Assembly (NCBI GenBank): GCA_002399405.1
Contig: DHDP01000013.1
Location: forward strand, 150,784 to 214,783
Reading direction: 5' to 3'
Origin: Treponema sp. UBA4873
GTDB lineage: Bacteria; Spirochaetota; Spirochaetia; Treponematales; Treponemataceae
Length of the DNA stretch: 64,000 nt
This document shows positions 23,438 through 57,974 of the stretch, one piece after another. Within the stretch, counting starts at the first letter, position 1, and every line of letters starts with the position of its first letter. Below the pieces are notes generated by a model. The model worked only from the letters and a program-made list of their open reading frames with translations. It did not search any database and was not told the DNA's origin. Position numbers and translations under genes: made by a program.

Positions 23438-23670
23438 TTTTACATCCTTACTTCAAAAGAACAATCAAAACAACAAGAAAATACTCACCACATCTGACAG
23501 AAATTCTTTCTTCTGCTGATTATTCGCCTCCCTCTCTAATGTCGTGGTACGCTTATTTATGACTGATTTTCTCTCGCAATAAAACAGTATAAAAATTTGA
23601 CAAATACAAATAACGGAGTTATCATTCTACTTAGCGAACAAGTGACTTACTCACACAGTGGAGGTTGTAT

Positions 23671-24870: not shown

Positions 24871-24920
24871 TTTTTCGTTTTATGTTTCTGCTTCGACGGT
24901 ATCTAAAAGGAGGATACGTT

Positions 24921-26294: not shown

Positions 26295-26295
26295 A

Positions 26296-27486: not shown

Positions 27487-27499
27487 GCGCGGCACGTAA

Positions 27500-27538
27500 A
27501 CGGCTCTTTGCCATTCCGAAACAAAGGGCCGTTTTTTT
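27500..27538. terminator. bidirectional intrinsic terminator between the enolase paralog 2 and GntR genes
   Basis: ACGGCTCTTTG..CAAAGGGCCGT 11-bp stem followed by T7. Confidence 0.65.
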
Positions 27539-28277: not shown

Positions 28278-28458
28278 ATCATTAACCTGTTCACTGTTAT
28301 CAAAAATGTATTGAATTCCAACGACGATTTCCCCATGTTGTTTCATCATGCAATAATTCTTATCTTATAGAAGGAAATCGTACTACTTATTATAGCATAG
28401 TATTAAAACAACATCTATCAAAAACCGGATTTGACCAGCACATTTATGGCCGGAGCAC

Positions 28459-28604: not shown

Positions 28605-30764
28605 TCATACTTTGAAAGTGTCGATCTGACTGCCAATCTTTGTTATGGAGTCTTTCATTCGCTGTGATACAGCGGTAAGCGCATTCCCCATATCATCTAC
28701 TTTTGTTGCACCAGCAGACATTTCGTTCATACTGTTTTTCATCGTTACAGTAGCATCTTGTAACCGTTTTACTTCATCTAGTATCGCTTTATTACCTGCA
28801 GACATTTCCTGAGAAGCTGTCCGCACCTCTGTGGTACTGTCGTTCATTGCACTGAGTGCCTGCCCTATCTGTTTGGATCCTTCAGATTGTTCTATCATGG
28901 CACTTTTTATCTGACGTACAAGTTCATCAGTTTGCTGTATTTTCACAGATACGCTCTTGAACGCTTCACTTGACTCTGACGAGGCTGCAACAACTGTATC
29001 GATCGAATCCCTGATTTTATTCAGCTGCTCCCCGATTGTTTTTGACTGAGCACTTGATGTTTCTGACAGTTTTCTGATTTCATCAGAGACAACACTGAAT
29101 CCTTTTCCTGCTTCTCCCGCATGTGCAGCTTCAATTGCCGCATTCATAGCAAGAAGATTTGTCTGGCTTGCAATATTCGCAATTGCCAGATTTGCTTCCT
29201 GAAGCATATCCGACTGTTTTTCTATCTGAGTGATGCGCCTATTAACATCATCCTGCTTTTTCGAACCTTCATGAGCCTTCTGTTGAAGTTCATCAAAAGA
29301 ACCCGCCATTTTCTCAACAGACTGATTTACAGAATCGATATTGCCAATCATCTCCTCAACCGCAGCGGATGCCTGAGTTACCCCTGAAGATTGAGTCTCT
29401 ATCATCCGCTCAAGAGAAGCAATATTAGATGCGATCTGGTTTACGGCCCCTGCGGTTTCTTCTACACTGGATGCCTGGTTTGAAATTTGTTCTCTGACGC
29501 TGTCGATGTTGCCGATAATCTGTTCAATAGACGTACCTGCATCTTCTGCAGTAGTCTGCAAATCCTGTCCGGCCAGAGCGAGAGACTGTTTTGAATTCTT
29601 TATATCAGAAATCATTGAATGCAGTTTTTCAGTAAACCGATTGAATCCGTTTACAACAGATCCGATTTCATTATTGGAGTTGATGGAAATCCGCTGCGTA
29701 AGATCAGCATTGCCAGTCGCTATTCCATTGATTGCTTTTTCCACCTTCTGCAGCGGTTTTAAAGCTATTAGTATAATAAGACTTGCTATAAAAAGGAGCA
29801 GAAATACTATTATGCCGGCGGTGAATACAAGACTTCGAGCCAGTTCGTGAGAAGTTTCGTACATCTGTCCGGCTGAAATCTCAAGAGCACAGCTCCATGG
29901 CGTTCCTGCTATCGGCGCATAAAAAACACAGACTCTCTGCCCTTTGAAATTGTTTATCCACATATATCCGGTTTCGCCCGATATCATCTTTTTTGCCATT
30001 GCGGTTATATCGCTGGAACCAGAGTCTTCTAACGAGGTCAGATTTTTCTTCATGATCAAAGACGTGTCCTGATGTACTATAATGGTTCCGTCTCCCCCAA
30101 GCAGCCACATAAAGCCACTGCTTCCGAGTTTTACACTGTTAATGATATCCTGGACGGTGGAAAGTGTAACGACACCGGAAAAGAACCCGATCGTCCTCCC
30201 ATTTACTTTTGCGGCTTTTGTAACATGCAGTATTTGACCTCCTTTTCCCATATCAATGACAGGATTGTCGACGTCTTCATCTTTTCCATCCTGCATTATA
30301 GCCTTGAAATAGGAACGCTTTGTCAAATCGTATCCGCTATGACCGTCGTCTATAAAAGCACTTCCATCCTTCCCGCTGTACAGGACATAATCGAAATCAC
30401 TGCTTCTGTTATGAACATGGTCTTGAAGCCACTGAAAAATCATCTGCGAGTCACCTGTCTGTACAACGTCGGCTGTCGTGTACAGATTCATCTCTTTCAT
30501 ATATTCGCTTACTTTGTTGGATATTGCTAATGAATATGCACCTGTTATCTCCCGGCAGCTCTGGATATAACTATTTTCAATTAATTTGCCCGATATGCCG
30601 GAAATAAGAAAAATTTGCAGCACAGTTAACACCAGAAACGAAAAACCGAGCGTCAGTAAAAAAAACACGATCAATTTCTGCTTTTTTCTGGGTTTCGGTT
30701 CCTCCGTCAGATTTTGTATACTTTCTTCCTGATTTTCATACGCTGCTTCGCCAATGACCTTCAT
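28605..30764 (-). CDS. methyl-accepting chemotaxis protein with a periplasmic dCache-like sensor and HAMP domain
   Basis: 719 aa with two TM segments flanking an approximately 270-aa sensor. Signalling hairpin [32 protein letters not shown]. Confidence 0.88.
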
Positions 30765-30965: not shown

Positions 30966-32096
30966 TTAAGATGCCGGTGTCGTCATGAGCTGCAGTACGA
31001 GTTCCGTCGCAAGCCGGAGATCATCAAGCGTCGTGTATTCACCTGTCGTATGCGGCTGCTGCATTCCGCAGGCTGCGACGATACCGGTAATGCCGTAGAG
31101 CGCAAAATTATTGTTGTCGCTTCCGCCGAATGTCGGTGCAAACTGCGCTTTCAGGCCGAGCGAACGGCACGCTGCGGAAAAATTACGGACAGCGGATGAT
31201 TCAGGCGGTGTCGTATATGCATGAATCCGTATGTCCGACGTTACTGCGGCAGACGCGCCGCAGGCTGCTGCGGCCGTTTCAAAGAGGGTGCGGGTTTCCT
31301 CCATGAGTGCAAGCGCATCGCTGTGGACGGCGCCGCGGATTTCGCCTTCAAGTATAACGGAGTCGGGAACAATATTCGTTGCAGTTCCGCCGCGTATCGT
31401 ACCGATATTGCGGGTACTGTGCGTGCCGATTCTGCCGAGCTGAAGTTTCTGTACGGCGCCTGCCGCCGCCTGTATGGCGTGAACGCCTTTCTCGGGTTCG
31501 AATCCTGCGTGTGCCGCTTTCCCCTTCACTTCAACGGAAAACGAAATAAGCGTCGGTGCGCCCACTGCGGCGCTGCCGATTTGTCCGCTCAGATCGAGTA
31601 CGTACGCTTCTTTTGAACGAAGTATGCTGAAGTCCAACACGCGGCTGCCTCTGCAGTAAACTTCTTCCGCGACGGGAAAGAGCAGCTCGAGGCTGCGGTG
31701 CGGAATACGGCGTGTCTCCAGAATCCGGACTGCTTCAAGAATTTCGGCTACGCCTGCGGCGTCGTCGGCGCCGAGTACGGTGTTCCCTGAACTCGTGATG
31801 CGGCCGCCGTCGTGCAGTACTGCTTTTTTCCCGATGCCCGGCATGACGGTGTCGAGATGTGCGGAAAAAAGCAGCGGTTCTCCGGGAAGCGTTCCGCTCA
31901 TGCGCCCGAGAACGTTGCCTGTGGTAAGAAACTGATCGCGGGAAGGCGCATCGTCTTCCGAAACGCCGGCGCCGAGATCCGAGAGGAATTTCTTTACGTA
32001 ATCCGCTGCGGCTCGTTCGTGCCCGCTCGGAGAGTCTATGCTTACGAGTGTACTGAATAATTCAAAAAGAGGTTCTCCCTCGGCGTGAATTTCCAT
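30966..32096 (-). CDS. M20-family metallopeptidase (PepT/tripeptidase-like)
   Basis: HLDTV, GADDAAG, EEVYCRG and the C-terminal PHTTGEY pattern. ATG at 32096 has GGGAGGA upstream. Confidence 0.75.
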   Translation of the reverse strand: MEIHAEGEPLFELFSTLVSIDSPSGHERAAADYVKKFLSDLGAGVSEDDAPSRDQFLTTGNVLGRMSGTLPGEPLLFSAHLDTVMPGIGKKAVLHDGGRITSSGNTVLGADDAAGVAEILEAVRILETRRIPHRSLELLFPVAEEVYCRGSRVLDFSILRSKEAYVLDLSGQIGSAAVGAPTLISFSVEVKGKAAHAGFEPEKGVHAIQAAAGAVQKLQLGRIGTHSTRNIGTIRGGTATNIVPDSVILEGEIRGAVHSDALALMEETRTLFETAAAACGASAAVTSDIRIHAYTTPPESSAVRNFSAACRSLGLKAQFAPTFGGSDNNNFALYGITGIVAACGMQQPHTTGEYTTLDDLRLATELVLQLMTTPAS

Positions 32097-32142
32097 ATCA
32101 GTTCTTCCTCCCATTAACAAAAAATGTATTTCCGTGTTTCAT

Positions 32143-33186
32143 TCAATAATGAAGGAATTTTTCGCCGGGCGTTCTGCTCAGTCTGCTCCTGTTCTGCGGA
32201 ACGGACCAGACGGCGTCGTAATCGATCTGATCCGCGAAGCGCGTATTAAAGTCGATGAAGTTCGAACCGTCTGTCAGTTTTTCCTTATGAGTGCCTGCTG
32301 ACGCAATATCTTTCAGATACGTGTTGTTTCTGAATGCGGGAATCACGTACAGGTCGCGCGCGTACTCCCACAGGTTTTTGTAGTCGACTACCCGGTGCTT
32401 GATGGGGCCGATATTCCTGTAATAGTGCGTGTCGAACCGGGCGAGCGTAACGAACAGGCGTACGTCGCTGTCGGTCACGTAATCGCCGAAGAGAAACCGT
32501 TTGTCCTCAAGACGTTTTTCGAGCAGATCGAGCGAATCGTAAAAATCATCGAACGCTTCGTTGTACGCGGTAACCGACTGTGCAAACATCATACGGTACG
32601 TAGCATTGTTCACATGCGGAAACAGCCAGTCGTTGAGTTCGTCGATATCTTTGCGCAGATGAACCGGGTAGATGTCGGGCGCATCAGGTTTCTGAAACGG
32701 CCTGAATGCCGCTTCCAGATAATTTGTAAGCCTGTTGTAGTCGTTGTTCACTACTTTTCCGGTCGTCACGTCGACAAGTGCGGGAACGGTGCAGCGGCCG
32801 GTATAGGAAGGATCGGTCCGGTTATACAATTCGCTGAGAAACTGAACGCCAAGCACCGGATCGCGGCGGTCTTTGTCGTAGACGCATTCCCAGCCGTACG
32901 CACTGTTTTCCGGGCTGCGGCCTACGAGATTTATGCTCACGGCATTCTCAAGACCGAGCAGTTCGCGCACAATCGAGGAACGGTTCGACCAGTGGCATCC
33001 TTTTGCCCAGAAGAGCCGGTAGCGGCCGCTTTCGGCTTTCAGATCTTCAGGTCCGTTCCCGAACGGTGTACGGAACCGGTTCGGCTGTCTCTGAAACGCA
33101 CCGCGTTCGTCGATTTCAACTTTTATTTCATTAGGCCGTTTCTTTAAATTTTCTTCCGGCGTTTTTACATCGCATCCGCAGCTCAT
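32143..33186 (-). CDS. Xi-class glutathione transferase / glutathionyl-hydroquinone reductase-like (YqjG/ECM4 family), paralog 1, most divergent
   Basis: Family architecture is kept (GRYRLFWAKGCHWSNR, TVPALVD, DVRLFVTLARFDTHYY). Active-site box reads CHWSNR instead of CPWAHR, and NNATYRMMFA replaces NNGVYKAGFA. N-terminus MSCGCD. Confidence 0.8.
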   Translation of the reverse strand: MSCGCDVKTPEENLKKRPNEIKVEIDERGAFQRQPNRFRTPFGNGPEDLKAESGRYRLFWAKGCHWSNRSSIVRELLGLENAVSINLVGRSPENSAYGWECVYDKDRRDPVLGVQFLSELYNRTDPSYTGRCTVPALVDVTTGKVVNNDYNRLTNYLEAAFRPFQKPDAPDIYPVHLRKDIDELNDWLFPHVNNATYRMMFAQSVTAYNEAFDDFYDSLDLLEKRLEDKRFLFGDYVTDSDVRLFVTLARFDTHYYRNIGPIKHRVVDYKNLWEYARDLYVIPAFRNNTYLKDIASAGTHKEKLTDGSNFIDFNTRFADQIDYDAVWSVPQNRSRLSRTPGEKFLHY

Positions 33187-33205
33187 TCAGTACCTCCGTG
33201 CTTTT

Positions 33206-34195
33206 TCATTGTTCAATACGGAATTTTTGTTCCGGGTGACTGCTCAGCCGTGAACGTTCCTCAGCCGGCAGATTCCAGACCGACGCGTCGGGACCTTTCG
33301 GGACAATTCTGAACGGATTGCCGGTAACGGCGCACAGGTGATAATGCTTTTTGATCGCTTCAAAATCAGTCGTATCGCCGAATCCATGTGTCTGGTACAG
33401 ATCGCGCGCATATCCCCAGAGATTCCGGTAATCGCGGATTCTGTTCCTGTTTACCTTGAATCCGTTGTAATACGCAGCGTCGAACCGGGCGAGCGTAACG
33501 TACAGGCGCACGTCGGATTCGGTAATAAAATCGCCGAAAAGGAAACGTTTTGTTCCCAGTTCTTTTTCCAGGCTGTCGAGCCGGGCAAATACGGTGTCGT
33601 ATGCTTTTTCATACGCTCCCTGACTGCGGGCAAATCCCGCTTTATAGACGCCGTTGTTCACTTCGTGAAACAGTATATCGTTGAGCGAATCGATGTCGCC
33701 GCGCAGCTGCTCAGGATAGAGATCGGGAGCATCCGCGCGGTGAAACGGCTTCCATGCGGTCTCCCACCAGCGTGTCAGATTGAAGTAATCGTTGTTGACC
33801 GCTTTTCCAGTCTTCAGGTCGACGACGACCGGAACGGTAAAACGCCCCGTATACTCCGGGTCTGCTTTCAGATAGACGTCGCTGATGTACGCAACGTGAA
33901 GCACCGGATCGAGTCCGTCCCTGTCGAGCGTGAAAGCCCAGTCGCTTTCGGGTTTGTCCGGCCGTACCGGATCAGCCGTACCGAGACTGATTACTTTGTC
34001 GAGTCCGAGCAGACTGCGTACAATGACCGAACGGTGCGCCCACGGGCAGACAGGCGCCCAGAGCAGCCTGTACCGTCCGGCCTCAACGGGCAGCTCGCCC
34101 GGTCCGCTTCCGAACGGAGTTGTAAATTCGTTATACTGCCGGTGGAATTCTCCGCCGTTCTGAATCTCGCCGCCTATCCATTCTTTTACTGACAT
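33206..34195 (-). CDS. Xi-class GST / glutathionyl-hydroquinone reductase-like, paralog 2 (canonical CPWAHR)
   Basis: GRYRLLWAPVCPWAHRSVIV, VNNGVYKAGFARSQ, DVRLYVTLARFDAAYY. Confidence 0.88.
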   Translation of the reverse strand: MSVKEWIGGEIQNGGEFHRQYNEFTTPFGSGPGELPVEAGRYRLLWAPVCPWAHRSVIVRSLLGLDKVISLGTADPVRPDKPESDWAFTLDRDGLDPVLHVAYISDVYLKADPEYTGRFTVPVVVDLKTGKAVNNDYFNLTRWWETAWKPFHRADAPDLYPEQLRGDIDSLNDILFHEVNNGVYKAGFARSQGAYEKAYDTVFARLDSLEKELGTKRFLFGDFITESDVRLYVTLARFDAAYYNGFKVNRNRIRDYRNLWGYARDLYQTHGFGDTTDFEAIKKHYHLCAVTGNPFRIVPKGPDASVWNLPAEERSRLSSHPEQKFRIEQ

Positions 34196-34225
34196 ACATG
34201 TCCTTCCTTATTCGTGCGGAGGGTT

Positions 34226-35269
34226 TTATACCCCGACACGGAATTTCTGTTCCCGATGACTGCTCAACCGTAAACGTTCCTCCGCCGGCACATTCCATCC
34301 GCTTGTGTCGGGGCCTTTCGCGACAAGTCCGTACACGTTGCCCTCCAGCGCACGCAGGTGCGGCGACGTCTGGTAATGAATCTTGTACTTGTCGAAACAG
34401 GTCGTCTCCCTGAATTCCGGAATCTGATACAGGTCGCGGGCATATCCCCATAAATTGTGGTAGTCGGCGATTCTGTTCCGGTTCGCACGGAAGACAGTGT
34501 TGTAGACAACGTCGAACCGCGCGAGCGTCGGATAGAGCCTGACGTCGCTGTCGGTGACGAAGTCGCCGAACAGAAAACGGTCCGAAGAGAGCCGTTTTTC
34601 GAGATAATCGAGCGCCTGAAACAGCCTGTCGTATGCAGCTTCGTACGCCGCCTGAGTGCGCGCAAAGCCGACATCGTAGACGCCGTTGTTCACGCGTTTG
34701 AAAATGAACAAGTCAAGTTCGTCTATGTCGGAACGGAGATCCTGCGGATACAGATCCGGCGCATTTTTTTTGTGAAACGGTTTCCACTCTGTGTCGAGCT
34801 GCTGGGGAATCCGGAAATGATCGTTCGTCACGCCCAGTCCCGTCTTCGTGTCGACGATAATCGGCACCGTTGGACGCTCGTTAAAATCGCTTTTCGTGCG
34901 CGTGTATATTTCTTTCAGATAGTGTATGCCGAGCACAGGATCTTTTCCGCCGGGATCGTCGGAAAACACCCAGCCTTCTCTGTCGCGCATGAGACCTGCA
35001 GCCCCCAGACTGATGACGCTGTCGAGCCCGAGCAGGTTCCGCGTAATGACGACTTTGTGCGCGTGCGGGCACGCCGGCATCCAGACGAGGTGGTACCGCC
35101 CCGCTTCCACGGGCCATTCGCCCGGGCCGCTGCCGAATCTGCCTTTAAACAGATTATCCTGAATCTGCATACTTCCGTCGCTGTTCATCTGATGACGGAA
35201 CGTGTCCTCAAAAAGCTGTGCGCCGGAGCTTTCGTCCGGTCGTGAAACAGTGCAGCATTCGTTGCTCAT
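34226..35269 (-). CDS. Xi-class GST / glutathionyl-hydroquinone reductase-like, paralog 3
   Basis: GRYHLVWMPACPHAHKVVIT, VNNGVYDVGFARTQ, DVRLYPTLARFDVVY. N-terminus MSNECC. Confidence 0.85.
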   Translation of the reverse strand: MSNECCTVSRPDESSGAQLFEDTFRHQMNSDGSMQIQDNLFKGRFGSGPGEWPVEAGRYHLVWMPACPHAHKVVITRNLLGLDSVISLGAAGLMRDREGWVFSDDPGGKDPVLGIHYLKEIYTRTKSDFNERPTVPIIVDTKTGLGVTNDHFRIPQQLDTEWKPFHKKNAPDLYPQDLRSDIDELDLFIFKRVNNGVYDVGFARTQAAYEAAYDRLFQALDYLEKRLSSDRFLFGDFVTDSDVRLYPTLARFDVVYNTVFRANRNRIADYHNLWGYARDLYQIPEFRETTCFDKYKIHYQTSPHLRALEGNVYGLVAKGPDTSGWNVPAEERLRLSSHREQKFRVGV

Positions 35270-35278
35270 CGCCGCGCC

Positions 35279-36271
35279 TCACTGCTGTTCCGCACGGAAT
35301 TTGTGCTCAGGGTCGCGGCTCAGTTTTGCCCGTCCGTGCGGTTCGTTCCATATGGAAACGTCGGGACCTTTCGCAAGGATTCCGTACGGGTTCTGACTCT
35401 GCGAACCGAGCTGATAGCCGCGTTTTATCGAATCGAAATCGGTATTCACGCCGAATCCCGGCGTCTGGTACAAATCTTTCGCATATCCCCAGAGATTCGG
35501 AAAGTCTATGAGTCTGTTGCGGTTGACGCGGAAAACGATATAGTACGCCGCATCGAAACGCGCAAGCGTCACGTAGAGACGTATATCCGAATCGGTGACG
35601 TAGTCGCCGAACAGAAAGCGCCGCGCCGACAGCCGTTCTTCAAGCTGATCGAGCCGGGCAAAAAGCGCGTCGTATGCTTTTTCGTATTCCTGCTGCGTTT
35701 CAGCGAATCCCGCTTTGTATACGCCGTTGTTCACGTCGTTGAAAATAACGTCGTTGAGCGAATCGATGTCGCCGTGCAGCTCTTCGGGATACAGGTCGGG
35801 CGCCCCTTTTTTATGGAACGGCTTCCACGCAGTCTCCCAGTAGTTGGTGAGTTTGAAGTAATCGTTGTTGACGACTCTGCGCGTTTTAACGTCGACGACA
35901 GTCGGCACCGTCGCCCTGCCGTCGTATTCGGGATCGGTTTCCGCGTAGATTTCCGGCAGATACCGTATCTTCAACACGGGGTCCACGCCGTCCGGGTCGA
36001 GCGAGAATTCCCATCCCTGCGGCGTGCGTACCGGATTAACTTTTCCGGTGCTGATGACGCTGTCGAGTCCGAGCAGACTGAATGCGATTGTCTGCCTGTT
36101 TGCCCACGGACAGATTGCCGCCCAGATGAGCCGGTAACGGCCCGCCTCGACGGGCAGCTCGCCCGGTCCGCTTCCGAACGGAGTCGTGAACCTGTTCTTC
36201 TGACGCTGAAATGCGCCTGTCGGCGTTATCTCATGTGCACTTTCCGAAGTTGCTACTTTACCTTCTGCCAT
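35279..36271 (-). CDS. Xi-class GST / glutathionyl-hydroquinone reductase-like, paralog 4
   Basis: GRYRLIWAAICPWANRQTIA, VNNGVYKAGFAETQ, DIRLYVTLARFDAAYY. ATG at 36271 with GGAGG upstream. Confidence 0.87.
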   Translation of the reverse strand: MAEGKVATSESAHEITPTGAFQRQKNRFTTPFGSGPGELPVEAGRYRLIWAAICPWANRQTIAFSLLGLDSVISTGKVNPVRTPQGWEFSLDPDGVDPVLKIRYLPEIYAETDPEYDGRATVPTVVDVKTRRVVNNDYFKLTNYWETAWKPFHKKGAPDLYPEELHGDIDSLNDVIFNDVNNGVYKAGFAETQQEYEKAYDALFARLDQLEERLSARRFLFGDYVTDSDIRLYVTLARFDAAYYIVFRVNRNRLIDFPNLWGYAKDLYQTPGFGVNTDFDSIKRGYQLGSQSQNPYGILAKGPDVSIWNEPHGRAKLSRDPEHKFRAEQQ

Positions 36272-36293
36272 ATACGAAACCTCCATAAGAGTT

Positions 36294-36359: not shown

Positions 36360-36794
36360 TTAAATTTTTTTCTCGGTATAAATCGTTTTGAAAACACCGC
36401 TGTCGTCGGTATTCGCATAGTCGGCGGTATATCCGAGTTTTTCGTAAAAGCCGACGGCCTCGTCGCGGCTCGTGATGATAACATCGTTCACACCGAACGA
36501 TTTGAGCCACTCTTCCGCACCCGCGACAACCTGCCGTCCCACTCCTTTACCGCGGTATTCTTCCAGAACGCAGACGCGCTCGATTTTAGCGCGGCCACCG
36601 TCGAGAATGTGAAGACGGCACGTTCCGACGGGGAGACGGCCATCGAGCGCGAGAATATATTTCGTTTCCGGCGTATCTCGTTCGTCGAATTCCTGATCGA
36701 GCCGGACGCCGAAACCCCTGATCATTGCCTGCGTGCGCACGTAATGAACGCCCGCGCGCTGCCATTCGTTTTCTGCATGGATAATCGTTATCAT
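36360..36794 (-). CDS. GNAT-family N-acetyltransferase
   Basis: 144 aa. Acetyl-CoA site pattern VLEEYRGKGVGRQVV. Confidence 0.8.
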   Translation of the reverse strand: MITIIHAENEWQRAGVHYVRTQAMIRGFGVRLDQEFDERDTPETKYILALDGRLPVGTCRLHILDGGRAKIERVCVLEEYRGKGVGRQVVAGAEEWLKSFGVNDVIITSRDEAVGFYEKLGYTADYANTDDSGVFKTIYTEKKI

Positions 36795-36809: not shown

Positions 36810-37574
36810 TTAAATTACGTAATCAAGATTCGACAGCGCTTTCGTCTTATACAGAAAATCTTTGAGACGCTGGCTCCGAGGATTTTCAAACAGCTGTTTT
36901 GCAGTCCCCTGTTCGACAATTTTTCCCTTCTCAAGAAAAATTACTTTATTGGAAACCTGCCGTACGAAATTCATCTCGTGCGTTACGAGCAGAATCGTGT
37001 TTCCGTCCTGCGCCGCCTTGCGGATTGTCGCAAGTACTTCGCCGACAAGTTCCGGATCGAGCGCGGACGTCGGTTCGTCCATAAGCAGCAGCCGCGGTTC
37101 CATTGCAAGCGCGCGTGCGATAGCGACGCGCTGCTGCTGTCCGCCCGATAAATGCGCCGGATAGTGATAAAGCCAGCCGCCGAGTCCGACTTTCTCAAGC
37201 TGCGCCCGAGCCGTGCGCTCAGCTTCCGCCCGACTGTATTTTTTTACGACGATCAGTCCTTCCATCACGTTCTCAAGGACTGTCTTGAGTTTAAAGAGAT
37301 TGAACTGCTGAAAAACCATCTCCGTATACCGGCGGAGTTCGTGAAGTTCTTTTCCCTTAATGCTGCTCAAATTGAATTCGGTCCCGCCGATAGTGACGTT
37401 CCCCTGCTCCGGCTGCTCGAGCAGATTCAGGCAGCGCAGCAGCGTCGATTTGCCTGTTCCCGACGGACCGATAATGCTTACGACAGTCCCCTCTTCTATG
37501 CTCAAGTCCACGCCGTCGAGTACGACGTTCGTTCCGAATTTTTTAGCCAGACTGCGTATTTCTATCGTGCTCAT
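36810..37574 (-). CDS. polar amino acid ABC transporter ATP-binding protein
   Basis: GPSGTGKST, LSGGQQQRVAIARAL, LLMDEPTSALDPE (GlnQ/TcyC-like). Confidence 0.88.
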   Translation of the reverse strand: MSTIEIRSLAKKFGTNVVLDGVDLSIEEGTVVSIIGPSGTGKSTLLRCLNLLEQPEQGNVTIGGTEFNLSSIKGKELHELRRYTEMVFQQFNLFKLKTVLENVMEGLIVVKKYSRAEAERTARAQLEKVGLGGWLYHYPAHLSGGQQQRVAIARALAMEPRLLLMDEPTSALDPELVGEVLATIRKAAQDGNTILLVTHEMNFVRQVSNKVIFLEKGKIVEQGTAKQLFENPRSQRLKDFLYKTKALSNLDYVI

Positions 37575-38314
37575 ATTTCCGCTCCTGAAGGAACTCCCTT
37601 CGGTACAACCGGGCTGTCCGGAACAGTGAAGCGTTTTTCAAGAACGCGGAATATCCGCTCAATGACGAGCGTCAGTCCCCAGTAAATAATCGCAAGCGAA
37701 CAGTACGATTCAAAATAGCGGTAGCTTGTCCCCGCGAGTATTTTTCCTTCCGCCGTCATTTCGACAACCGAACAGGAAAAGGCAAGCGACGTTCCTTTTA
37801 AAAGAGCTATGAGCGAATTCCCGAGCGACGGAAGCGCCACCGCAAGCGCCTCGGGAAACAGAATACGGCGCAGTATCTGCATGTTCGTCATGTTGATCGA
37901 CTTAGCCGCTTCTATCTGTCCCTTGTCGACGGAATTGATTGCGGAGCGGATCGTTTCCGAATCGAACGCTGACTGATTCAGTCCGAGCGCGACGATTGCG
38001 AACACTATCGACGGTATGCTGTTGATGTTGTAGCTGCTCCCGTGATAGTAATTAAAATACTTGAGTGCGAGCGGAATGCCGAAATACGACAGATAGAGCT
38101 GTACGATAATCGGCGTACCGCGCATGACGGAAACGAACACTGCCGCAATCTGGTAAAGCACCGGTATTTTGTTCTGCTTTACAAGCGCAATAATAAGTCC
38201 GAGCACCCAGCCGATAATCATCGCTGCAACAGTCAGTTCGAGCGTGACCGGCAGATATGCAAGAAGCTGCGGTATCTGGGTAAAAACAAGTTCGGCATCA
38301 AAAAGCTTGGGCAT
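37571..38314 (-). CDS. polar amino acid ABC transporter permease
   Basis: 247 aa, HisM/GlnP-type, EAA-like segment VDKGQIEAAKSINMTNMQILRRILFPEA. Confidence 0.85.
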   Translation of the reverse strand: MPKLFDAELVFTQIPQLLAYLPVTLELTVAAMIIGWVLGLIIALVKQNKIPVLYQIAAVFVSVMRGTPIIVQLYLSYFGIPLALKYFNYYHGSSYNINSIPSIVFAIVALGLNQSAFDSETIRSAINSVDKGQIEAAKSINMTNMQILRRILFPEALAVALPSLGNSLIALLKGTSLAFSCSVVEMTAEGKILAGTSYRYFESYCSLAIIYWGLTLVIERIFRVLEKRFTVPDSPVVPKGVPSGAEI

Positions 38315-38330: not shown

Positions 38331-39182
38331 TTACTGCTGCGCTTCCGGTGTGTAGTCCTCACCGAAATATTTTTCGCAGATTGTTTTCGACGTTCCGTCT
38401 TTTATCACTTCCGCAAGTCCTTTGTTGATATCCTGCACGAGCTGCTCGTTTCCTTTGCTTATAATCAGGTAGCTGTACGGCTCACCCATAATCTGCTTCG
38501 ACACAGTGTCGGAAACTTCAAGCGGCTTCAGATTAAAGTGATACTGTTCGTTGTAGACGCCGTACATCGGTTTGTCGATGATGAGAAAATCGTATTTACC
38601 GGCTTCAATGTCCTGCAGCTGTGAAATCAAATCCGCTTCGGTGTACTGGATTTTTATCTGCTTGTCAGGATTCGCGTCGTTGTATTCCTTTACCGACGTC
38701 GTAACGTTTGCAGCCGCGTCTCCGACGCATGTTTTGCCGCTCAGTTGGGAAAAATCCTCAATACTGTCGAGGGTGATTTTTCCCGGATTCACGACGATGA
38801 CGTACCTGTTTCTGAAAATAGGATCGGAAAAAAGGTACTTCTCTTTCCGCGATTCAGTCTGTACGAAATTGTTCACACCGATCTGATAGCGGTCGGAGTC
38901 GAGTCCGGCGAAAATAGACGAAAAATCCGTTTTTTCGATAACGAGTTTGTACTGGGGCAGTCTTGAAAAAATCGCCTGAATCAGTTCGATATTTTCGCCG
39001 ACAAGTTCATTCTTTTCATTGACGTACGTAAACGGACGCGGCATTCCGCCCGTAACGGCATATACCGTTTTGACGTCTTTTCCTTCGGCCTTTGCCGAAT
39101 CTGCGTTCTTTTTTGCACACGACGTAACAGCCAGAACTGCAGCCGCGGCTGCAATCATCTGTATTCCTATCCTTTTTTTCAT
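38331..39182 (-). CDS. amino acid ABC transporter substrate-binding lipoprotein (family 3 SBP)
   Basis: Lipobox LAVTSC. Type-3 SBP length and motifs. Confidence 0.8.
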   Translation of the reverse strand: MKKRIGIQMIAAAAAVLAVTSCAKKNADSAKAEGKDVKTVYAVTGGMPRPFTYVNEKNELVGENIELIQAIFSRLPQYKLVIEKTDFSSIFAGLDSDRYQIGVNNFVQTESRKEKYLFSDPIFRNRYVIVVNPGKITLDSIEDFSQLSGKTCVGDAAANVTTSVKEYNDANPDKQIKIQYTEADLISQLQDIEAGKYDFLIIDKPMYGVYNEQYHFNLKPLEVSDTVSKQIMGEPYSYLIISKGNEQLVQDINKGLAEVIKDGTSKTICEKYFGEDYTPEAQQ

Positions 39183-39207: not shown

Positions 39208-39272
39208 ACCTATTTGTTTAGTAGGTTTTTATATAGTGAGGATATACTACTAAACCGGTAGGTAATTGTCAA
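39208..39272 (-). promoter_or_regulatory. promoter with two ACCTA-N9-TAGGT-type palindromes upstream of the SBP gene
   Basis: The minus strand reads TTGACA (39272-39267), 17 nt spacer, TAGTAT. Site 1 (39245-39263, one mismatch) lies in the spacer and site 2 (39208-39226, perfect) lies downstream. Confidence 0.55.
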
Positions 39273-39303: not shown

Positions 39304-39975
39304 TTACCGGCGTTCTTCGCTGTTTTCTGTCCGAATTTTTACGTCCCGTATGTAGTTGTATATGGTGTATTTTGAAACACCAAGCTCAGCAGCGACAATA
39401 TCGACTGCCCCCTTTATGTCGAAAATCCCCTGTTCCTGAAGCCGCTGAATAATACTTTTATTTTTTTCAATCGGAGCAATACCGGTAGCTTCGCTCGTTT
39501 CTTTCAGCACTTTCAGAAAGGCGGCGTGGACAAGATTTTCCACTTTGTCGGGATAACTTTCTCCAGCAGATTTATCTTCCGCCCCCCGTTCAGGAGTCAT
39601 GAGTATTTTCATAAACTGATTAAGCGGAGCACTTATATCAAAGCGTATACGGATGCAGCCGATAAGTTCTCCGCCGTCGTTTCTTATAATTATTAATACG
39701 GAGCGGAACTGTTTTCCTGAAGTACTGCCTGATATATACGGGCCTATGCAGTTTTCCGGCGTATGTTCCGCTTTTTTCACCAGTTCAATTTCGGAACCGG
39801 TCAGAAGCGGTTCGTCCTGACGCGCTGAATCAGCAGAGCTGTCTTCATATACGAGAGCCTGCGTTCCGCCGTCGAGAGAGTAAATACGTACGTCGCAGCA
39901 GCTGCCGAATATTCTGCTTATCCCGTCTGCTGCGGCCGTATACGATTCTAATTTTTTCCTGTTTTCTTCAGTCAT
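39304..39975 (-). CDS. YheO-like transcriptional regulator (PAS-like N-domain plus C-terminal HTH)
   Basis: 223 aa. C-terminal AVDIVAAELGVSKYTIYNYIRDV HTH. The N-terminal sensor-like domain has the YheO pattern (ISRIFGSCCDVRIYSLD..). Confidence 0.6.
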   Translation of the reverse strand: MTEENRKKLESYTAAADGISRIFGSCCDVRIYSLDGGTQALVYEDSSADSARQDEPLLTGSEIELVKKAEHTPENCIGPYISGSTSGKQFRSVLIIIRNDGGELIGCIRIRFDISAPLNQFMKILMTPERGAEDKSAGESYPDKVENLVHAAFLKVLKETSEATGIAPIEKNKSIIQRLQEQGIFDIKGAVDIVAAELGVSKYTIYNYIRDVKIRTENSEERR

Positions 39976-41052: not shown

Positions 41053-41070
41053 AAGAACCTCCTCTTATTA

Positions 41071-42950: not shown

Positions 42951-42977
42951 ACTGTCGCCTCCGTTGCGTGTATCAGA

Positions 42978-43388: not shown

Positions 43389-43411
43389 ACTTTCTCCTTT
43401 TGTTAATAAAC

Positions 43412-45181: not shown

Positions 45182-46138
45182 CTACTCGGCGAACAGTCCC
45201 GTGCTCAGATAACGCAGCCCCGTGTCGGGCAGAATCACCGCAATCGATTTCCCCTTGAATTCGGGACGCTCAGCAATCTGCGTTGCAGCCCAGAGCGCAG
45301 CCCCTGAAGAAACGCCGACGAGTATTCCGTCCGACTTTGCAACTTCACGAGCGGCTTTAAAGGCGTCAGCCGCACGAACGGTAATCGCTTCGTCGTAAAT
45401 CGTCTTGTCGAGATTCGGCGGAACGCGGGAAGGATCGACGTCTGAAAAACGGTGGACGCCCGTTATGTCGTTTTCCTCAAGTACCGGTTCGACCGCAGCG
45501 ATGTAGATTTTTTTGTTTTTTCCTCTCAGATATTTTCCCGTGCCGCTCAGCGTTCCGCCCGTTCCGACGCTGGCGACGAACACGTCCACGTCTCCGCCCG
45601 TATCGCGCCAGATTTCCTCTCCGGTTGTCTCATAATGACTCGCAGGATTTGCAGGATTCGCGAGCTGATTGACGTTTAAGTCGCCGCTCTGCGCCAAGAG
45701 GTCGAACAGAAGAAAACCGGCCGCCATGAAATCACCGCCCGTTTCGTCGAGCTTCTGTTTTACTTCGGGAACTTCGCTCATATTCACAAGCTCCGCTCCG
45801 TACGCTTTTATTACCTGCTTGCGTTCTTCGCTCACGAAGTCCTGAATATACGTTTTAAAATGATACCCTTTGGAAGCGGCCAGCGCCGCAAGCGCAATTC
45901 CCGTGTTTCCGCTCGTCACTTCGACGAACGAACCGCCCGGCTTCAAACTTCCGTTTTTTTCAGCATCCTCTATCATGCCTTTAGCAATACGGTCCTTTAC
46001 GCTGTTCGTCGGGTTAAAATATTCAAGCTTTCCCAGAATCGACGCGCTCAGATTGTGCCGCTTTTCATAGTTAACAAGCTCCAGAAGCGGCGTGTTCCCT
46101 ACCAGTTCACTGATTGACTTGTGAATGTTTTTACTCAT
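45182..46138 (-). CDS. cysK: cysteine synthase A (O-acetylserine sulfhydrylase)
   Basis: GNTPLLEL, PLP-lysine context FNPTNSVKDRIA, TSGNTGIALA, GTGGTLSG. Confidence 0.9.
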   Translation of the reverse strand: MSKNIHKSISELVGNTPLLELVNYEKRHNLSASILGKLEYFNPTNSVKDRIAKGMIEDAEKNGSLKPGGSFVEVTSGNTGIALAALAASKGYHFKTYIQDFVSEERKQVIKAYGAELVNMSEVPEVKQKLDETGGDFMAAGFLLFDLLAQSGDLNVNQLANPANPASHYETTGEEIWRDTGGDVDVFVASVGTGGTLSGTGKYLRGKNKKIYIAAVEPVLEENDITGVHRFSDVDPSRVPPNLDKTIYDEAITVRAADAFKAAREVAKSDGILVGVSSGAALWAATQIAERPEFKGKSIAVILPDTGLRYLSTGLFAE

Positions 46139-46417: not shown

Positions 46418-47569
46418 TTAATCGGCTTCATTCAGATACTCGAAAACGTAGTTAATGAGAAATTCAACTCCGTATTTCAGAACGCCTTCGTCGACTATCG
46501 TTTTGTTCGTATGGCCGACTGTATATTTCTCATTGACCGCAGCACCCACATGAATGAACGTTCCCGGTATAAATTTCTGATAAAGCGCAAAGTCCTCTCC
46601 GCCCATGAACGGTCTCCCCCATTTTACAGCTTTGCTGCCGTAAAGACGCTGTATGACTTTTACAGCCCTGTCGGTGCAGGTTTTGTCATTATTCACGGAA
46701 ACACCCGGCCCCCAGAAATCCGCGGCAACATCGGCACCTGCAGTCTCCGCTATATTTGCCGCGATTTCCCGTACCGATTTATTAAAAATGTACACATTTG
46801 ATTCCTGAAGCGTTCTGAAATTATACGATATATCGACAGATACAGGTTTGCCGTTTTCCTGATGAGTAGCTACGACAGTCGGGACGGTAACAACCTGCTC
46901 GTTCTGCGGATACCCGTATGCGGCAAGAGCGCTCACGTTGTTTATTATCTGCGACGCGGTAATTATGAGATTGGAAGTAAGGCTGTCGCGTTTTTTCAGA
47001 TGGATTTCGATGTTCGCGCCTATTGAACTCGCAATTCCGTATCCTACTTCGAATACGCCGAGATCGAGCGTCGTTGCATTATGAAGTCCTATGATAGTGT
47101 CAACATCATTCAGTCCGCCGGCTGCAACGATTTTTTTCGCTCCGGCGCCGATCTCTTCGCCTTCCTGAAAAAATATCTTTACGGTTCCGTGAATCTGCTC
47201 TTTCAGTTCATTGAGCAGCTTTGCAGTTCCAAGCATAAAAGTGATATGAGAGTCATGGCCGCAGGCATGCATAACGCCCTCGTTCTTCGACGAAAACGGA
47301 ACACCAGTTTCTTCTTCGACAGGCAGCGCATCAATGTCACCGCGCAGCGCTATTGTCTTTCCGGTTTTACTTCCTTTTATCGTTGCTATGATGCTCGTTG
47401 CGGGAATTTTTTCATAGCTTATGCCGAGCCTGTCGAGTTCGCCTGCAATATATTCGCAGGTTTTAAATTCCTGACTTCCAAGTTCGGGATATTCATGAAA
47501 ATGCTCGTAATTTTTTCTCAGATAGGTATCATTATCTTCGACAAGTTTTCTTATTTCTTCCTGTGACAT
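46418..47569 (-). CDS. M20D-family amidohydrolase (N-acyl-amino acid deacylase / YxeP-like)
   Basis: 383 aa with HEYPELGSQE, ALRGDIDALP, HACGHD, and C-terminal GGEDFALY..FIHVGA. Confidence 0.8.
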   Translation of the reverse strand: MSQEEIRKLVEDNDTYLRKNYEHFHEYPELGSQEFKTCEYIAGELDRLGISYEKIPATSIIATIKGSKTGKTIALRGDIDALPVEEETGVPFSSKNEGVMHACGHDSHITFMLGTAKLLNELKEQIHGTVKIFFQEGEEIGAGAKKIVAAGGLNDVDTIIGLHNATTLDLGVFEVGYGIASSIGANIEIHLKKRDSLTSNLIITASQIINNVSALAAYGYPQNEQVVTVPTVVATHQENGKPVSVDISYNFRTLQESNVYIFNKSVREIAANIAETAGADVAADFWGPGVSVNNDKTCTDRAVKVIQRLYGSKAVKWGRPFMGGEDFALYQKFIPGTFIHVGAAVNEKYTVGHTNKTIVDEGVLKYGVEFLINYVFEYLNEAD

Positions 47570-47959: not shown

Positions 47960-48718
47960 TTATATTGCATATTCCGGCGGAATCCTTACGTTATTTTTCG
48001 CGAGAAATTCCTTTGTACGGAGATTTTGCGGAGCGTTGAAAATCTGCTCCGGTGTTCCGCTTTCGACGATTCTGCCTTTTTCGAGAAAAATCACCTTTGT
48101 CGCTACGTTGTATACGAACGACATTTCGTGCGAAACGAGAATCATCGTATTGCCGTTCTCTGCTATTTTTCTGATTGTCTGAAGCACTTCCTCCACCAGT
48201 TCAGGGTCGAGCGCGGAAGTAGGTTCGTCGAACAGAAGCAGTTCCGGTTCCATAGCAAGCGCGCGTGCAATGGCAACCCGCTGCTGTTGTCCGCCCGACA
48301 AATGCTGCGGATAATAATCGCTCCTGTCGGAAAGGCCCACGAGCGACAATTCTTTTTCGGCGATCTTTTCAGCCTCTTCTCTACTCTTTTTCTTAACAAC
48401 AATAAGCCCTTCCATAACATTTTCAAGCGCTGTCTTTTTCTTAAAGAGATTAAACTGCTGAAACACCATGCCGATCCGCTTCCGCAGCTCTATTATGTCT
48501 TTCTTCGCATGCAGCACATAATCGAATTGAAAATCGTCCAATGAAATAGCTCCTCGTTCCGGTTTCTCAAGAAGGTCTATGCATCTCAAAAACGTCGACT
48601 TACCCGTTCCCGACGGACCTATAATTGCAACAACATCGCCCTTGCCGATTGAAACGCTCACTCCGTCAAGCACGGTGTTTCCGTTGAAAGATTTGTAAAT
48701 ATCTTTTATCTCAATCAT
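47960..48718 (-). CDS. polar amino acid ABC transporter ATP-binding protein (paralog of 36810-37574)
   Basis: GPSGTGKST, LSGGQQQRVAIARAL, LLFDEPTSALDPE. Confidence 0.88.
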   Translation of the reverse strand: MIEIKDIYKSFNGNTVLDGVSVSIGKGDVVAIIGPSGTGKSTFLRCIDLLEKPERGAISLDDFQFDYVLHAKKDIIELRKRIGMVFQQFNLFKKKTALENVMEGLIVVKKKSREEAEKIAEKELSLVGLSDRSDYYPQHLSGGQQQRVAIARALAMEPELLLFDEPTSALDPELVEEVLQTIRKIAENGNTMILVSHEMSFVYNVATKVIFLEKGRIVESGTPEQIFNAPQNLRTKEFLAKNNVRIPPEYAI

Positions 48719-48721
48719 ATG

Positions 48722-49477
48722 TTATTGTCCCCTGCATTCGGCAACGGCTACTTTTGCGGAATCGTTTTTTCCGACAACATCAGGCACTTTCACTGCTTTA
48801 CTGATAAGACGGATAATCTGTTCAAGCACAATAACAAGCGCCCAATAAATTACCGCGAGCGCAACGTATGCCTCAAAGTAGCGGTAATCGCGCCCTGCTA
48901 GAATTTTTCCCGCGGCCGTCATCTCTATGACAGAACAGCTGAACGCAAGCGACGTACCTTTTATTAATCCTATAAGCGTGTTGCCGAGCGGCTGAATCGC
49001 AAGCTCCACGGCCTCCGGAATGACGATTCTCCTGAGGGACTGCCACCCCGTCATACCGATTGCCTGCGCTGCTTCCACCTGTCCCTTGTCGACTGCTTCG
49101 AGCGCCGAGCTTATGACAACGGAGTTATATGCGGCCTGATTGAGCGCAAGCGCGGCTATCGCGTAAATAATCGGCGGAATGGCCGCTACGTTGTAATCTG
49201 TTCCGTTCCAGTAATTAAGGTACTGAAGAAAAATCGGTATGCCGAAATACGAAACGTACAGCTGCACAATAATCGGCGTTCCCCGTATCACCGAGATGAA
49301 AACGATCGACAGCTGATTCAGCACTTTGATTTTTTTTATGCGGATAACCGCGATAACGAAACCGAGCAGCAGGCCCAGCACCATCGACCATAATGTCAAA
49401 TATAACGTAACGGGAAGATATTTCAACATTGCGGCAATATCAGTGCCGACAACCTTTATATCGAACAGATTCAGCAT
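48722..49477 (-). CDS. polar amino acid ABC transporter permease (paralog of 37571-38314)
   Basis: 251 aa. VDKGQVEAAQAIGMTGWQSLRRIVIPEA. Confidence 0.85.
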   Translation of the reverse strand: MLNLFDIKVVGTDIAAMLKYLPVTLYLTLWSMVLGLLLGFVIAVIRIKKIKVLNQLSIVFISVIRGTPIIVQLYVSYFGIPIFLQYLNYWNGTDYNVAAIPPIIYAIAALALNQAAYNSVVISSALEAVDKGQVEAAQAIGMTGWQSLRRIVIPEAVELAIQPLGNTLIGLIKGTSLAFSCSVIEMTAAGKILAGRDYRYFEAYVALAVIYWALVIVLEQIIRLISKAVKVPDVVGKNDSAKVAVAECRGQ

Positions 49478-49489
49478 AGCGGCCTCTGT

Positions 49490-50386
49490 TTATTTACCGT
49501 CGGTAATTTCGTGCGCTTTTTCCACATCCGCGAGCGCAGGGGCAATGTTTTTCCCTTCGAAATATTTTCCGCTGATAGTTCCGATTGTTCCGTCCGCAAG
49601 CGCTTCTCGGTATGCCTTGTTCATGTCAGCAGCAAGCTGAGGATTTTTTTTCGAAACTATGAAAAAATTTCCGAGCGTAAGCAGCGGGCCGCCGACTGCT
49701 CCGAGTTCCTCCTTCGTTACATCAATAAATTGAAGTCCCTTTATTCCCGCATTCTTAACCTGGCTCTTCATAGAAACTGTCGTAAAGAAATAAAAATCTA
49801 TCTTGCCGGCCGACACGTCGACCGGATACGTATTAACGTTGTCGACGTATATCAGTTTCACCGGATTTTCGGGATGCTGTTTATTATACGTCTCGAACAA
49901 ATTGGCGTTATACGAAGACGAATCGACTTCAGTTGTATGGCCGCCGATGTCCTTAAACGATTTGATTTCGCTGTTTCCCTGTTTAACAAGAAGCGCGTGC
50001 GGATCAAAAGCATATTCATCCGTAAAGATGTATTTTTCGCCGCGCGATTTATTGTAGCCGAAATGATTGCATCCGACCTGATATAATCCCGCATCGATGC
50101 CGGTGAATATCGAAGGAAATTCAGTTATCTGAATGCTGAATTCGTACCGGGGAAGGCGACTGAAAATTTCCGTGAGCACTTCTATATCATACCCGGTTAA
50201 TTTTCCGCTGTTATCCACCGTTACGAACGGAGCAGGACCTCCGCTCGTTGCCGCGACAATCCTCTGTTTTTGAACGGAAGAACCGTCGTTCTTTTTTTTG
50301 CTCTTCGAAAATCCGCCGAAGACAACAGTCGTCATCATGAATACAGCCGCCAGAACACGCACTGCGGAATTATTTATTTTTTTCAT
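49490..50386 (-). CDS. amino acid ABC transporter substrate-binding protein (family 3 SBP)
   Basis: 298 aa with a signal peptide and the type-3 SBP pattern. First gene after leader copy B. Confidence 0.8.
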   Translation of the reverse strand: MKKINNSAVRVLAAVFMMTTVVFGGFSKSKKKNDGSSVQKQRIVAATSGGPAPFVTVDNSGKLTGYDIEVLTEIFSRLPRYEFSIQITEFPSIFTGIDAGLYQVGCNHFGYNKSRGEKYIFTDEYAFDPHALLVKQGNSEIKSFKDIGGHTTEVDSSSYNANLFETYNKQHPENPVKLIYVDNVNTYPVDVSAGKIDFYFFTTVSMKSQVKNAGIKGLQFIDVTKEELGAVGGPLLTLGNFFIVSKKNPQLAADMNKAYREALADGTIGTISGKYFEGKNIAPALADVEKAHEITDGK

Positions 50387-51926: not shown

Positions 51927-51941
51927 CGTGCATACCCCGCC

Positions 51942-57965: not shown

Positions 57966-57974
57966 TAATAATTA

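Follow-up and report, generated by a model that had tools for sequence, protein, structure and literature searches.

Glutathione S-transferases (GSTs) of the Xi class are known to split the thioether bond in adducts of thiols and hydroquinones, by way of a Cys-S-S-thiol intermediate. They include the glutathionyl-hydroquinone reductases (GHRs), such as YqjG of Escherichia coli, PcpF of Sphingobium, ECM4 of yeast and the fungal GHR1, whose genes stand alone or together with aromatic-degradation genes. MstX of Corynebacterium glutamicum (NCgl1216) works by a monothiol mechanism as a thiol-hydroquinone reductase with mycothiol, whose reactive end is N-acetylcysteine (PMC6815410). Bacillus recovers S-alkylated cysteines by importing and N-acetylating them, cleaving the C-S bond and removing the acetyl group, and the enzymes known for the cleavage are O2-dependent flavin monooxygenases or a class I lyase (PMC9706529, PMC10863075); 11 of 102 surveyed yxe-type loci have neither (PMC9706529). 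Here we describe a 64,000-nucleotide stretch of the genome of Treponema sp. UBA4873 (contig DHDP01000013.1, positions 150,784 to 214,783; hereafter the window), in which four consecutive Xi-class GST genes, X1 to X4, form part of an operon with an importer, a GNAT N-acetyltransferase and an M20 peptidase. We tentatively favor the view that the four genes may be the cleavage module of an anaerobic cysteine- and sulfur-salvage operon acting on S-linked compounds.

The four genes (Table 1) each matched GST_N_2 and GST_C_2 of Pfam, and their sequence matches to Xi-class GSTs in the PDB ranged from 1e-93 to 1e-42. X2 matched the Gordonia structure 4pts (3.5e-93), the Corynebacterium structure 3m1g (1.7e-89) and E. 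coli YqjG (2e-63), and the best sequence match of X1 was again 4pts (1.9e-59), so that the two actinobacterial proteins were the top PDB matches of both X1 and X2, far ahead of YqjG. NCBIfam gave no specific name to any of the Xi genes, its matches being weak and far below threshold. When the AlphaFold model of X1 (mean predicted local distance difference test score, pLDDT, 90.7) was used for a fold search of the PDB, the top 32 hits were all Xi GSTs, with TM-scores of 0.65-0.84, and the next GST class followed at E 4e-7, ten orders of magnitude below the Xi matches. By fold and by full-length similarity to solved Xi structures, X1-X4 belong to the Xi-class GSTs. The original prediction, made from the letters of the window and a list of its open reading frames (ORFs), had called four consecutive minus-strand Xi/GHR-like genes; the ORFs and the Pfam and PDB matches agree with it, and so do the predicted bounds of X1-X3, while the start given for X4 (36271) is an internal Met five codons downstream of 36286.

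Alignment of the paralogs reproduced the four boxes that had been read from the sequence (CHWSNR, CPWAHR, CPHAHK and CPWANR, from X1 to X4) as well as the variants of the NNGVYK motif, which is NNATYRMMFA in X1, NNGVYDVGFA in X3 and NNGVYKAGFA in X2 and X4; TVP and LARFD..Y were also found. X1 is 49, 42 and 48% identical in protein sequence to the other three paralogs, the range for the whole array being 42-49%, and the four copies are 60-76% identical in DNA. These values, and the fact that each copy has orthologs of its own, rule out a recent tandem duplication, as had been maintained from the visible divergence of the proteins. The Cys-rich N-termini pointed out in X1 (MSCGCD) and X3 (MSNECC) are indeed there, but orthologs rarely keep them (Cys3 of X1 in 26%, the X3 cysteines in 8%), and we therefore discarded them as functional tags.

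We mapped the G-site contacts listed for yeast ECM4 on an alignment that included E. coli YqjG (PMC5063366 for the list). In ECM4, the pair E173/S174 holds the gamma-glutamyl amine and carboxylate of glutathione (PMC5063366). Where YqjG has N-E-S, with this Glu-Ser pair, the four paralogs and 152 of 152 aligned cluster homologs have N-D-Y or N-D-H; at the same position, 4pts and 3m1g have N-D-F or N-D-Y, like the window proteins. Other features are shared with YqjG, PcpF, ECM4 and GHR1: fold, domain order and position of the catalytic Cys are the same, and X1-X4 keep the Arg of GR.TVP, which contacts the Gly carboxylate, the Trp that contacts the Cys carbonyl and the cis-Pro loop. An N-terminal Arg, in contact with the acyl carbonyl on the Cys nitrogen, occurs in X1, X2 and X4, with Ile in its place in X3; it presumably corresponds to R15 of ECM4, an assignment that fits the published numbering. 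Regarding the GHR tyrosine triad (Y195, Y253 and Y296 of YqjG), the equivalents of Y195 and Y253 occur in all four paralogs and that of Y296 is found as H-Y in X2 and X3 and as G-Y in X4, which gives three of three in X2-X4; unlike in GHRs, the region of the third Tyr could not be aligned in X1, where the pLDDT of the model dips as well. The CPWA box, which is strictly conserved in GHRs (PMC5063366), is intact in X2 and X4 but reads CHWS in X1 and CPHA, with loss of the Trp, in X3, the Cys being retained in all. This catalytic Cys is the sole Cys conserved in every paralog and is invariant (100%) in each of the four ortholog groups, which points to a monothiol mechanism requiring an external thiol. 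Since the gamma-glutamyl contacts are lost while those to the Cys backbone, the acyl carbonyl and the carboxylate stay, the site does not appear to be glutathione-specific; it would fit an N-acylated cysteine with a nearby carboxylate rather than the gamma-glutamyl head of glutathione.

The closest sequence and fold matches of the window proteins thus lie in the clade of MstX, together with 4pts and 3m1g, the latter presumably NCgl1216 itself. The structures of that clade share with X1-X4 the Asn-Asp-Tyr/Phe in place of Asn-Glu-Ser, but they place the Arg of GR.TVP differently (K/R-G-I-T-V-P), whereas it is canonical in X1-X4. MstX, moreover, is a single stress-response gene outside any importer/GNAT/peptidase operon. 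From these comparisons, we class X1-X4 as resembling MstX, not as members of its group. To our knowledge, mycothiol is an actinobacterial thiol and would not be expected in Treponema or Firmicutes.

The array stands in a run of nine genes on the same strand, from 39182 down to 30966, in the order binding protein, permease, ATPase, GNAT, X4, X3, X2, X1 and PepT-like M20 peptidase. The intergenic gaps of 9-73 bp are compatible with a single transcript over this whole interval, and a promoter-like site upstream of the binding-protein gene is its probable start. Riboswitch or T-box control was discarded, as Rfam returned only tRNAs in the window and, in seven related loci, tRNAs and one unrelated M-box. 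In the PDB, the GNAT is closest to YjcF of B. subtilis (1q2y), 3efa and SACOL1063, and its homologs bear generic names only; the PepT-like peptidase, whose start is put by gene callers at about 32114 (382 aa), matches 3gb0 and 3rza at 1e-62 to 1e-63. The neighbors listed in the original prediction, a GNAT, two ATP-binding cassette (ABC) importers, a CysK-like enzyme and an M20 peptidase, were all found, the M20 genes being two. Its description of the importers as cyst(e)ine-type did not hold: they are of polar-amino-acid type, and the binding proteins are nearer to GshT than to YtmK. For both importers, the closest solved relatives of the binding protein are 4eq9 and 4c0r (E 1e-36 to 1e-42, about 34% identity; 1e-42 and 2e-38, respectively, for the binding protein of the second importer), while the cystine-binding TcyK/YtmK matches more weakly (1e-18 to 1e-23). 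Both structures have been identified as glutathione-binding GshT (PMC5287219; bioRxiv 10.1101/2024.02.13.580100), the binding protein of streptococcal GshT/TcyBC import. We ruled out that the cluster protein is GshT itself: identities are 34-40%, two contact residues of GshT, Thr12 and Ser71, are replaced by Met and Val in the binding protein of the operon (SBPa), and the cluster-linked copy of Streptococcus ratti, a GshT paralog, is 36% identical to S. mutans GshT. Judging from these similarities, the binding proteins are GshT paralogs, probably with a related ligand.

To place the operon in a broader context, we mapped the window proteins by tblastn on 80 loci from GTDB representative genomes, one genome per species and none identical to the window; neighborhood counts refer to those 42 loci in which X1 has 6 kb or more of flank on either side. 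Homologs of X1 number in the thousands, and the 120 best are 54-100% identical to it. Where named, they belong to Lachnospiraceae, Paenibacillaceae, Streptococcus and Enterococcus, and CHWSNR or CNWSNR can be recognized in 78 of the 120. Their labels are generic, either "GST C-terminal domain-containing protein" or, from JGI for close homologs, "glutathionyl-hydroquinone reductase". Near X1, 37-38 of the 42 loci have importer genes and 31 have the PepT-like M20 gene, and for the GNAT and the CysK-like gene alike the number is at least 21; the clusters hold one (8 loci), two (12), three (13) or four (9) Xi genes. Gene order is highly variable. The typical order in Lacrimispora and Hungatella is CysK-like, X4, binding protein, permease, ATPase, (X3), X2, (GNAT), X1 and PepT-like M20, with each Xi gene 62-74% identical by tblastn to one particular paralog of the window; in Roseburia-type clusters it is binding protein, X1, X1', GNAT, permease, ATPase and M20, and in S. 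salivarius binding protein, GNAT, X2 and X1. The CysK-like gene adjoins X4 in many Firmicute loci, and further neighbors are enzymes of cysteine and methionine metabolism (Cys_Met_Meta_PP, a class I/II aminotransferase, a short MetE-like protein), as well as LysR. Recurring content in varied order indicates a functional, not accidental, association. The grouping of GNAT, importer, M20 and CysK suggested by the original prediction is therefore a conserved neighborhood, seen in several gene orders among the 42 loci, and the sulfur-recycling context that it had proposed also stands. Its suggestion that a four-gene array was peculiar to the spirochaete does not hold: clusters of two to four genes are common in Lachnospiraceae, and all four types occur together in roughly a dozen of the 80 loci. 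Seen across these loci, the gene set is widespread in anaerobic gut Firmicutes and forms a conserved, reshuffled neighborhood in 42-80 genomes from two phyla.

Orthologs of each paralog type with the same box occur in Lachnospiraceae, Oscillospiraceae and Paenibacillaceae, and those of two types in Streptococcus also. The X1-type box (CHWSNR or CNWSNR) was present in 91 of 91 sequences, the X2-type CPWAHR in 22 of 23 and the X4-type CPWATR in 23 of 26; CPHAHK of the X3 type was found in 12 of 12 locus genes and in 53 of the 118 best homologs, in addition to about 22 with CP[HYF]xxK variants. In the tree, X1 and X3 are each monophyletic, and X2 and X4 are sisters. With boxes that are stable across genomes and X1 and X3 monophyletic, the sub-functionalization put forward for the array is plausible. 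The Xi genes of Treponema are 65-74% identical to their Firmicute orthologs in the alignment (70-72% for X4), and the importer and GNAT genes about 55-73%; such identities across phyla suggest that the Treponema copy was probably acquired horizontally, most likely from Firmicutes judging from the distribution. A Treponema-like contig (L087) shows the order nitrogenase-like gene, CysK-like, YheO regulator, importer, GNAT, X4, X3, X2, X1, with the regulator in the same position as in the window and abutted by the CysK-like gene, whereas tblastn with the window proteins found no YheO-like regulator in the Firmicute loci. Elsewhere, a tRNA gene is sandwiched between two Xi-GST genes (L085, 8208-8278), with two GNATs and a LysR regulator in the same cluster, besides genes for a short MetE-like protein, a class I/II aminotransferase and a GSH-peroxidase-like protein. 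In S. salivarius (L003, 5255-6571), a glutathione-reductase-like flavoprotein of 438 aa with Pyr_redox_2 and Pyr_redox_dim domains is encoded about 1 kb upstream of the unit of binding protein, GNAT, X2 and X1.

Several of the Xi genes are fused. X2 and X1 form a single in-frame ORF (X2::X1) in seven genomes of Lacrimispora/Hungatella (L012, L014, L015, L017, L018, L019 and L028); that of L. xylanisolvens DSM 3808 (L019, 9026-11002) encodes 658 aa with two GST modules. In eight other Lachnospiraceae (L062, L068, L071, L073, L077, L081, L082 and L083), X1 is fused to a degenerate second Xi module (X1::X1'). Because X2::X1 fusions occur and the Xi GSTs form dimers (PMC5063366), X2 and X1, neighbors in the window, may plausibly pair as a heterodimer.

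How might these genes work together? The known oxygenases require O2, which the anaerobic hosts of the cluster do not have, and among the annotated genes from 27.5 to 63 kb of the window we found no ScmK/CmoJ flavin monooxygenase or class I lyase (2SL) domain. The Bacillus scm/yxe and sna/cmo loci unite a polar-amino-acid ABC importer, a GNAT, a C-S cleaving enzyme and an M20 hydrolase under sulfur regulation (PMC9706529, PMC12757645, PMC10863075), and the Xi genes stand at the operon position where such loci have their cleavage enzyme. The window likewise has a polar-amino-acid importer, a GNAT, which would play the part of ScmL or SnaA, and a ScmP/YxeP-like M20D gene that would suit the Bacillus logic of "acetylate, break down, deacetylate", except that the flavin monooxygenase or fumarate-type class I lyase would be replaced here by a Cys-dependent Xi GST. 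We propose cysteine salvage because an importer, a GNAT and M20 hydrolases are present, the Xi genes occupy the cleavage position, the hosts live without oxygen and Xi enzymes cleave thioethers. S-substituted cysteine-containing compounds (cysteine, Cys-Gly or glutathione-derived conjugates) would be imported, the likeliest of them being S-(hydro)quinonyl or S-aryl/acyl-methyl adducts that stem from plant phenolics or from host detoxification, and then N-acetylated by the GNAT. The single conserved Cys of the Xi enzyme would then attack the sulfur of the conjugate, freeing the carbon moiety and leaving an enzyme-S-S-(N-acyl)cysteinyl mixed disulfide, which a second small thiol would resolve before M20 hydrolases free the cysteine. 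The paralogs, which differ in the pocket beside the catalytic Cys, would probably divide the range of leaving groups among them, with X2 and X1 likely acting as a heterodimer. We infer the substrates, what acetylation is for, which way the flux runs and heterodimerization, and the reductive removal of a thiol moiety from S-conjugates, as put forward in the original prediction, is likewise a proposal. In its most specific form, which we regard as doubtful, the proposal would make the CHWSNR-, CPHAHK- and CPWA-type Xi enzymes oxygen-independent mercapturate/cysteinyl-conjugate reductases that use GNAT-made N-acetylcysteine-type ligands instead of glutathione, partly as X2/X1 heterodimers, and thus a third way of performing the cleavage step, this one thiol-dependent, for anaerobes. 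Bacteria of the gut, the rumen, the mouth and termites could then mine sulfur from plant-phenolic and host-detoxification thioethers.

A number of observations weigh against such a salvage route. Unlike in scm/sna loci, the M20 protein that travels with the cluster is of the PepT-like peptidase type, not an M20D deacetylase, and binding proteins similar to GshT are as compatible with a glutathione-related substrate as with a cysteine conjugate. ScmP deacetylates N-acetylcysteine (PMC12757645). We ruled out that role for the PepT-like gene, which belongs to another M20 subfamily; the ScmP-like gene of the window, a candidate N-acetylcysteine deacetylase by its similarity, is the M20D gene 10 kb upstream of the core operon and outside it, and genes of this kind are rare in Firmicute clusters. 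By tblastn, only some one in two loci had the GNAT, although a divergent copy was missed at least once, and we found no assigned substrate for YjcF or SACOL1063 in the literature. We also dropped GNAT::Xi fusion as strong evidence of coupling, as a single GNAT::X1 fusion was seen, on a short metagenomic contig (P0010), and none in the 80 genome loci. Lastly, Xi enzymes reduce disulfides too, and thioether cleavage is thus not the sole possible chemistry.

This last point leads to a reading that we consider rather unlikely, namely that the Xi paralogs are disulfide reductases or thiol transferases acting on imported oxidized sulfur compounds such as cystine, Cys-Gly disulfide, glutathione disulfide (GSSG), cysteine mixed disulfides or S-sulfocysteine from the CysK/M-like enzyme, with the PepT-like peptidase trimming Cys-containing peptides afterwards. 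In MstX and other Xi enzymes, hydroquinone reduction is accompanied by thiol-transferase (disulfide) activity (PMC6815410). An importer of cystine/GshT type agrees with this reading, 4c0r being a complex of GshT with GSSG, peptide substrates would suit a PepT-like enzyme, a CysK/M-like gene is often adjacent, and the flavoprotein upstream in S. salivarius could be read in the same way. However, disulfide reduction leaves unexplained both the conserved GNAT and the retention of up to four paralogs with altered pockets on the Cys side. In addition, few disulfides are to be expected in the rumen, the gut and termites, anoxic habitats in which the cluster is frequent, and thioredoxin systems are normally enough for the reduction of cystine.

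Ordinary glutathionyl-hydroquinone reductases, detoxifying quinones with imported glutathione and with the extra copies as redundant isozymes, are what the JGI label of close homologs would imply, and the intact CPWA box and Tyr triad of X2 and X4, the GshT-like importers and the GSH peroxidase gene that adjoins the cluster in L085 agree with it. We nevertheless hold this to be improbable, in line with the doubt about a plain glutathionyl-hydroquinone role voiced in the original prediction. Every paralog and aligned cluster homolog lacks the Glu-Ser pair for the gamma-glutamyl moiety and has other residues in its place, CPWA is broken in X1 and X3 in spite of its strict conservation in GHRs (PMC5063366), and SBPa differs at GshT contact residues. 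Boxes specific to each paralog and conserved across phyla argue against redundancy, and the up to four specialized copies, some of them fused, lie in a sulfur-amino-acid operon of anaerobes, not among genes for quinone or aromatic degradation. Very unlikely, in our view, is de-thiolation of proteins or small molecules for redox homeostasis, in the manner of mycoredoxin or glutaredoxin, drawing on any low-molecular-weight thiol available in these anaerobes, with the neighboring genes only supplying the thiol. MstX is mycoredoxin-like and protects against oxidative stress (PMC6815410), the monothiol mechanism would be compatible, and a GNAT and a CysK-like enzyme could in principle make an N-acetylcysteine cofactor thiol. 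Yet the genes are tightly coupled in one operon with an importer and peptidases, which speaks for catabolism or salvage more than for housekeeping redox control, the cluster has no conserved thiol reductase flavoprotein, and four specialized paralogs are hard to justify for a general de-thiolase.

The whole window is rich in sulfur-amino-acid genes. Between 55 and 63 kb lie a nitrogenase-like D/K pair, a HisC-like aminotransferase, an Fe-ADH, a short MetE-like protein and a methionine-gamma-lyase-like enzyme. The pair consists of two Oxidored_nitro genes (55219-57965, minus strand) that score far under the NifD/K/E/N cut-offs, and no NifH-like gene is adjacent to them in the window; the other four, the MetE-like one of PRK06520 type, stand beside it at 57975-62874. 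By its gene content, the interval 55219-62874 may be a nitrogenase-like organosulfur system of Mar type. In a Firmicute metagenome-assembled genome (L088, 1781-11020), radical-SAM, NifH-like, NMT1 binding protein, two Oxidored_nitro and ABC genes directly precede an X1 ortholog, and in L087 (540-2988) the CysK-like gene of the Xi cluster has a nitrogenase-like gene right beside it. The nitrogenase-like and Xi sulfur systems thus appear to be repeatedly linked. Among the sulfur genes of the window sits a minus-strand gene (52696-54603) for a protein of 635 aa with HMA metal-binding, DsbD_2 membrane and cupredoxin-like domains, beside a histidine kinase/response regulator pair (50676-52772). The minus-strand interval 39982-45162 unusually mixes importer parts with MacB-like parts: an SsuA/NMT1-type binding protein, an ABC ATPase with an FtsX/MacB-type permease, and a separate ABC_tran/BPD_transp_1 pair. 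Further away, two MR_MLE (enolase-superfamily) genes lie on either side of an amino-acid permease gene and, together with a divergent GntR/FCD regulator, make up a separate small catabolic unit (23665-28349) adjoined by a chemoreceptor gene (28605-30764). Six tRNA genes are clustered at 5053-5786, upstream of trigger factor, one more lies at 23364-23437, and FlgK and FlgL-like flagellar genes occupy 1239-4462. The trigger factor groups, at >=90% identity, with proteins whose named sources are all "Treponema sp.", in agreement with the origin of the window.

Table 1. The Xi-class GST genes, their operon and related features of the window.
Feature	Position	Strand	Remarks
X1	32143..33186	-	Xi-class GST paralog, 347 aa, box CHWSNR, most divergent copy
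X2	33206..34195	-	Xi-class GST paralog, 329 aa, canonical box CPWAHR, NNDY instead of NES
X3	34226..35269	-	Xi-class GST paralog, 347 aa, box CPHAHK, carries NNGVYD and TNDH
X4	35279..36286	-	Xi-class GST paralog, 335 aa, box CPWANR
PepT-like M20 metallopeptidase	30966..32120	-	Last gene of the operon; TIGR01883 284 bits, cut-off 274
GNAT N-acetyltransferase	36360..36794	-	Pfam
ABC ATPase, TcyN-like	36810..37574	-	327 bits to TcyN, cut-off 406
ABC permease, cystine/polar-amino-acid type	37571..38314	-	BPD_transp_1; top NCBIfam match a cystine permease model, below cut-off
Substrate-binding protein SBPa, GshT-like	38331..39182	-	SBP_bac_3 (Pfam); PDB 4eq9 7e-39, 4c0r 7e-36
Promoter-like site	39244..39272	-	TTGACA-17-TAGTAT, 10/12, consensus match only; upstream of the binding-protein gene
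YheO-like regulator	39304..39975	-	PAS_6 and HTH_22; adjoins the operon upstream
CysK/CysM-like pyridoxal phosphate enzyme	45182..46138	-	PALP; below cut-off for cysK and cysKM; PDB cysteine synthases 1e-72
M20D amidohydrolase, ScmP/YxeP-like	46418..47569	-	TIGR01891 260 bits; top PDB match 1ysj (YxeP) 3.9e-55
Second GshT-like ABC importer	47960..50386	-	Binding protein 49490-50386, permease 48722-49477, ATPase 47960-48718

Full-text searches of the literature found no description of this cluster, of the CHWS and CPHA box variants or of X2::X1 fusions, and two papers on nitrogenase-like sulfur metabolism do not mention GSTs. The fold and the basic chemistry of Xi enzymes are already known; what is new is a G-site that appears to be independent of glutathione, a fixed set of specialized paralogs, their fusions and the context of a proposed sulfur-salvage operon in anaerobes. 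The operon is widespread and probably horizontally mobile, and it couples a GshT-like importer and a GNAT to several specialized Xi thiol reductases. To recover cysteine from S-alkylated cysteines, the bacterial routes known so far use either flavin monooxygenases, which need O2, or a fumarate-type lyase that acts only on succino adducts. The recovery of sulfur by strict anaerobes from stable thioether conjugates, which abound in bile, in material derived from urine and in plant matter after the reaction of quinones with thiols, is a gap that this operon, if our proposal is true, would fill. The Xi GST class would then extend beyond glutathione and mycothiol, and thousands of genes labeled "GST C-terminal domain-containing protein" would gain a function. 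The operon could also bear on the processing of drug and xenobiotic mercapturates by gut microbes.

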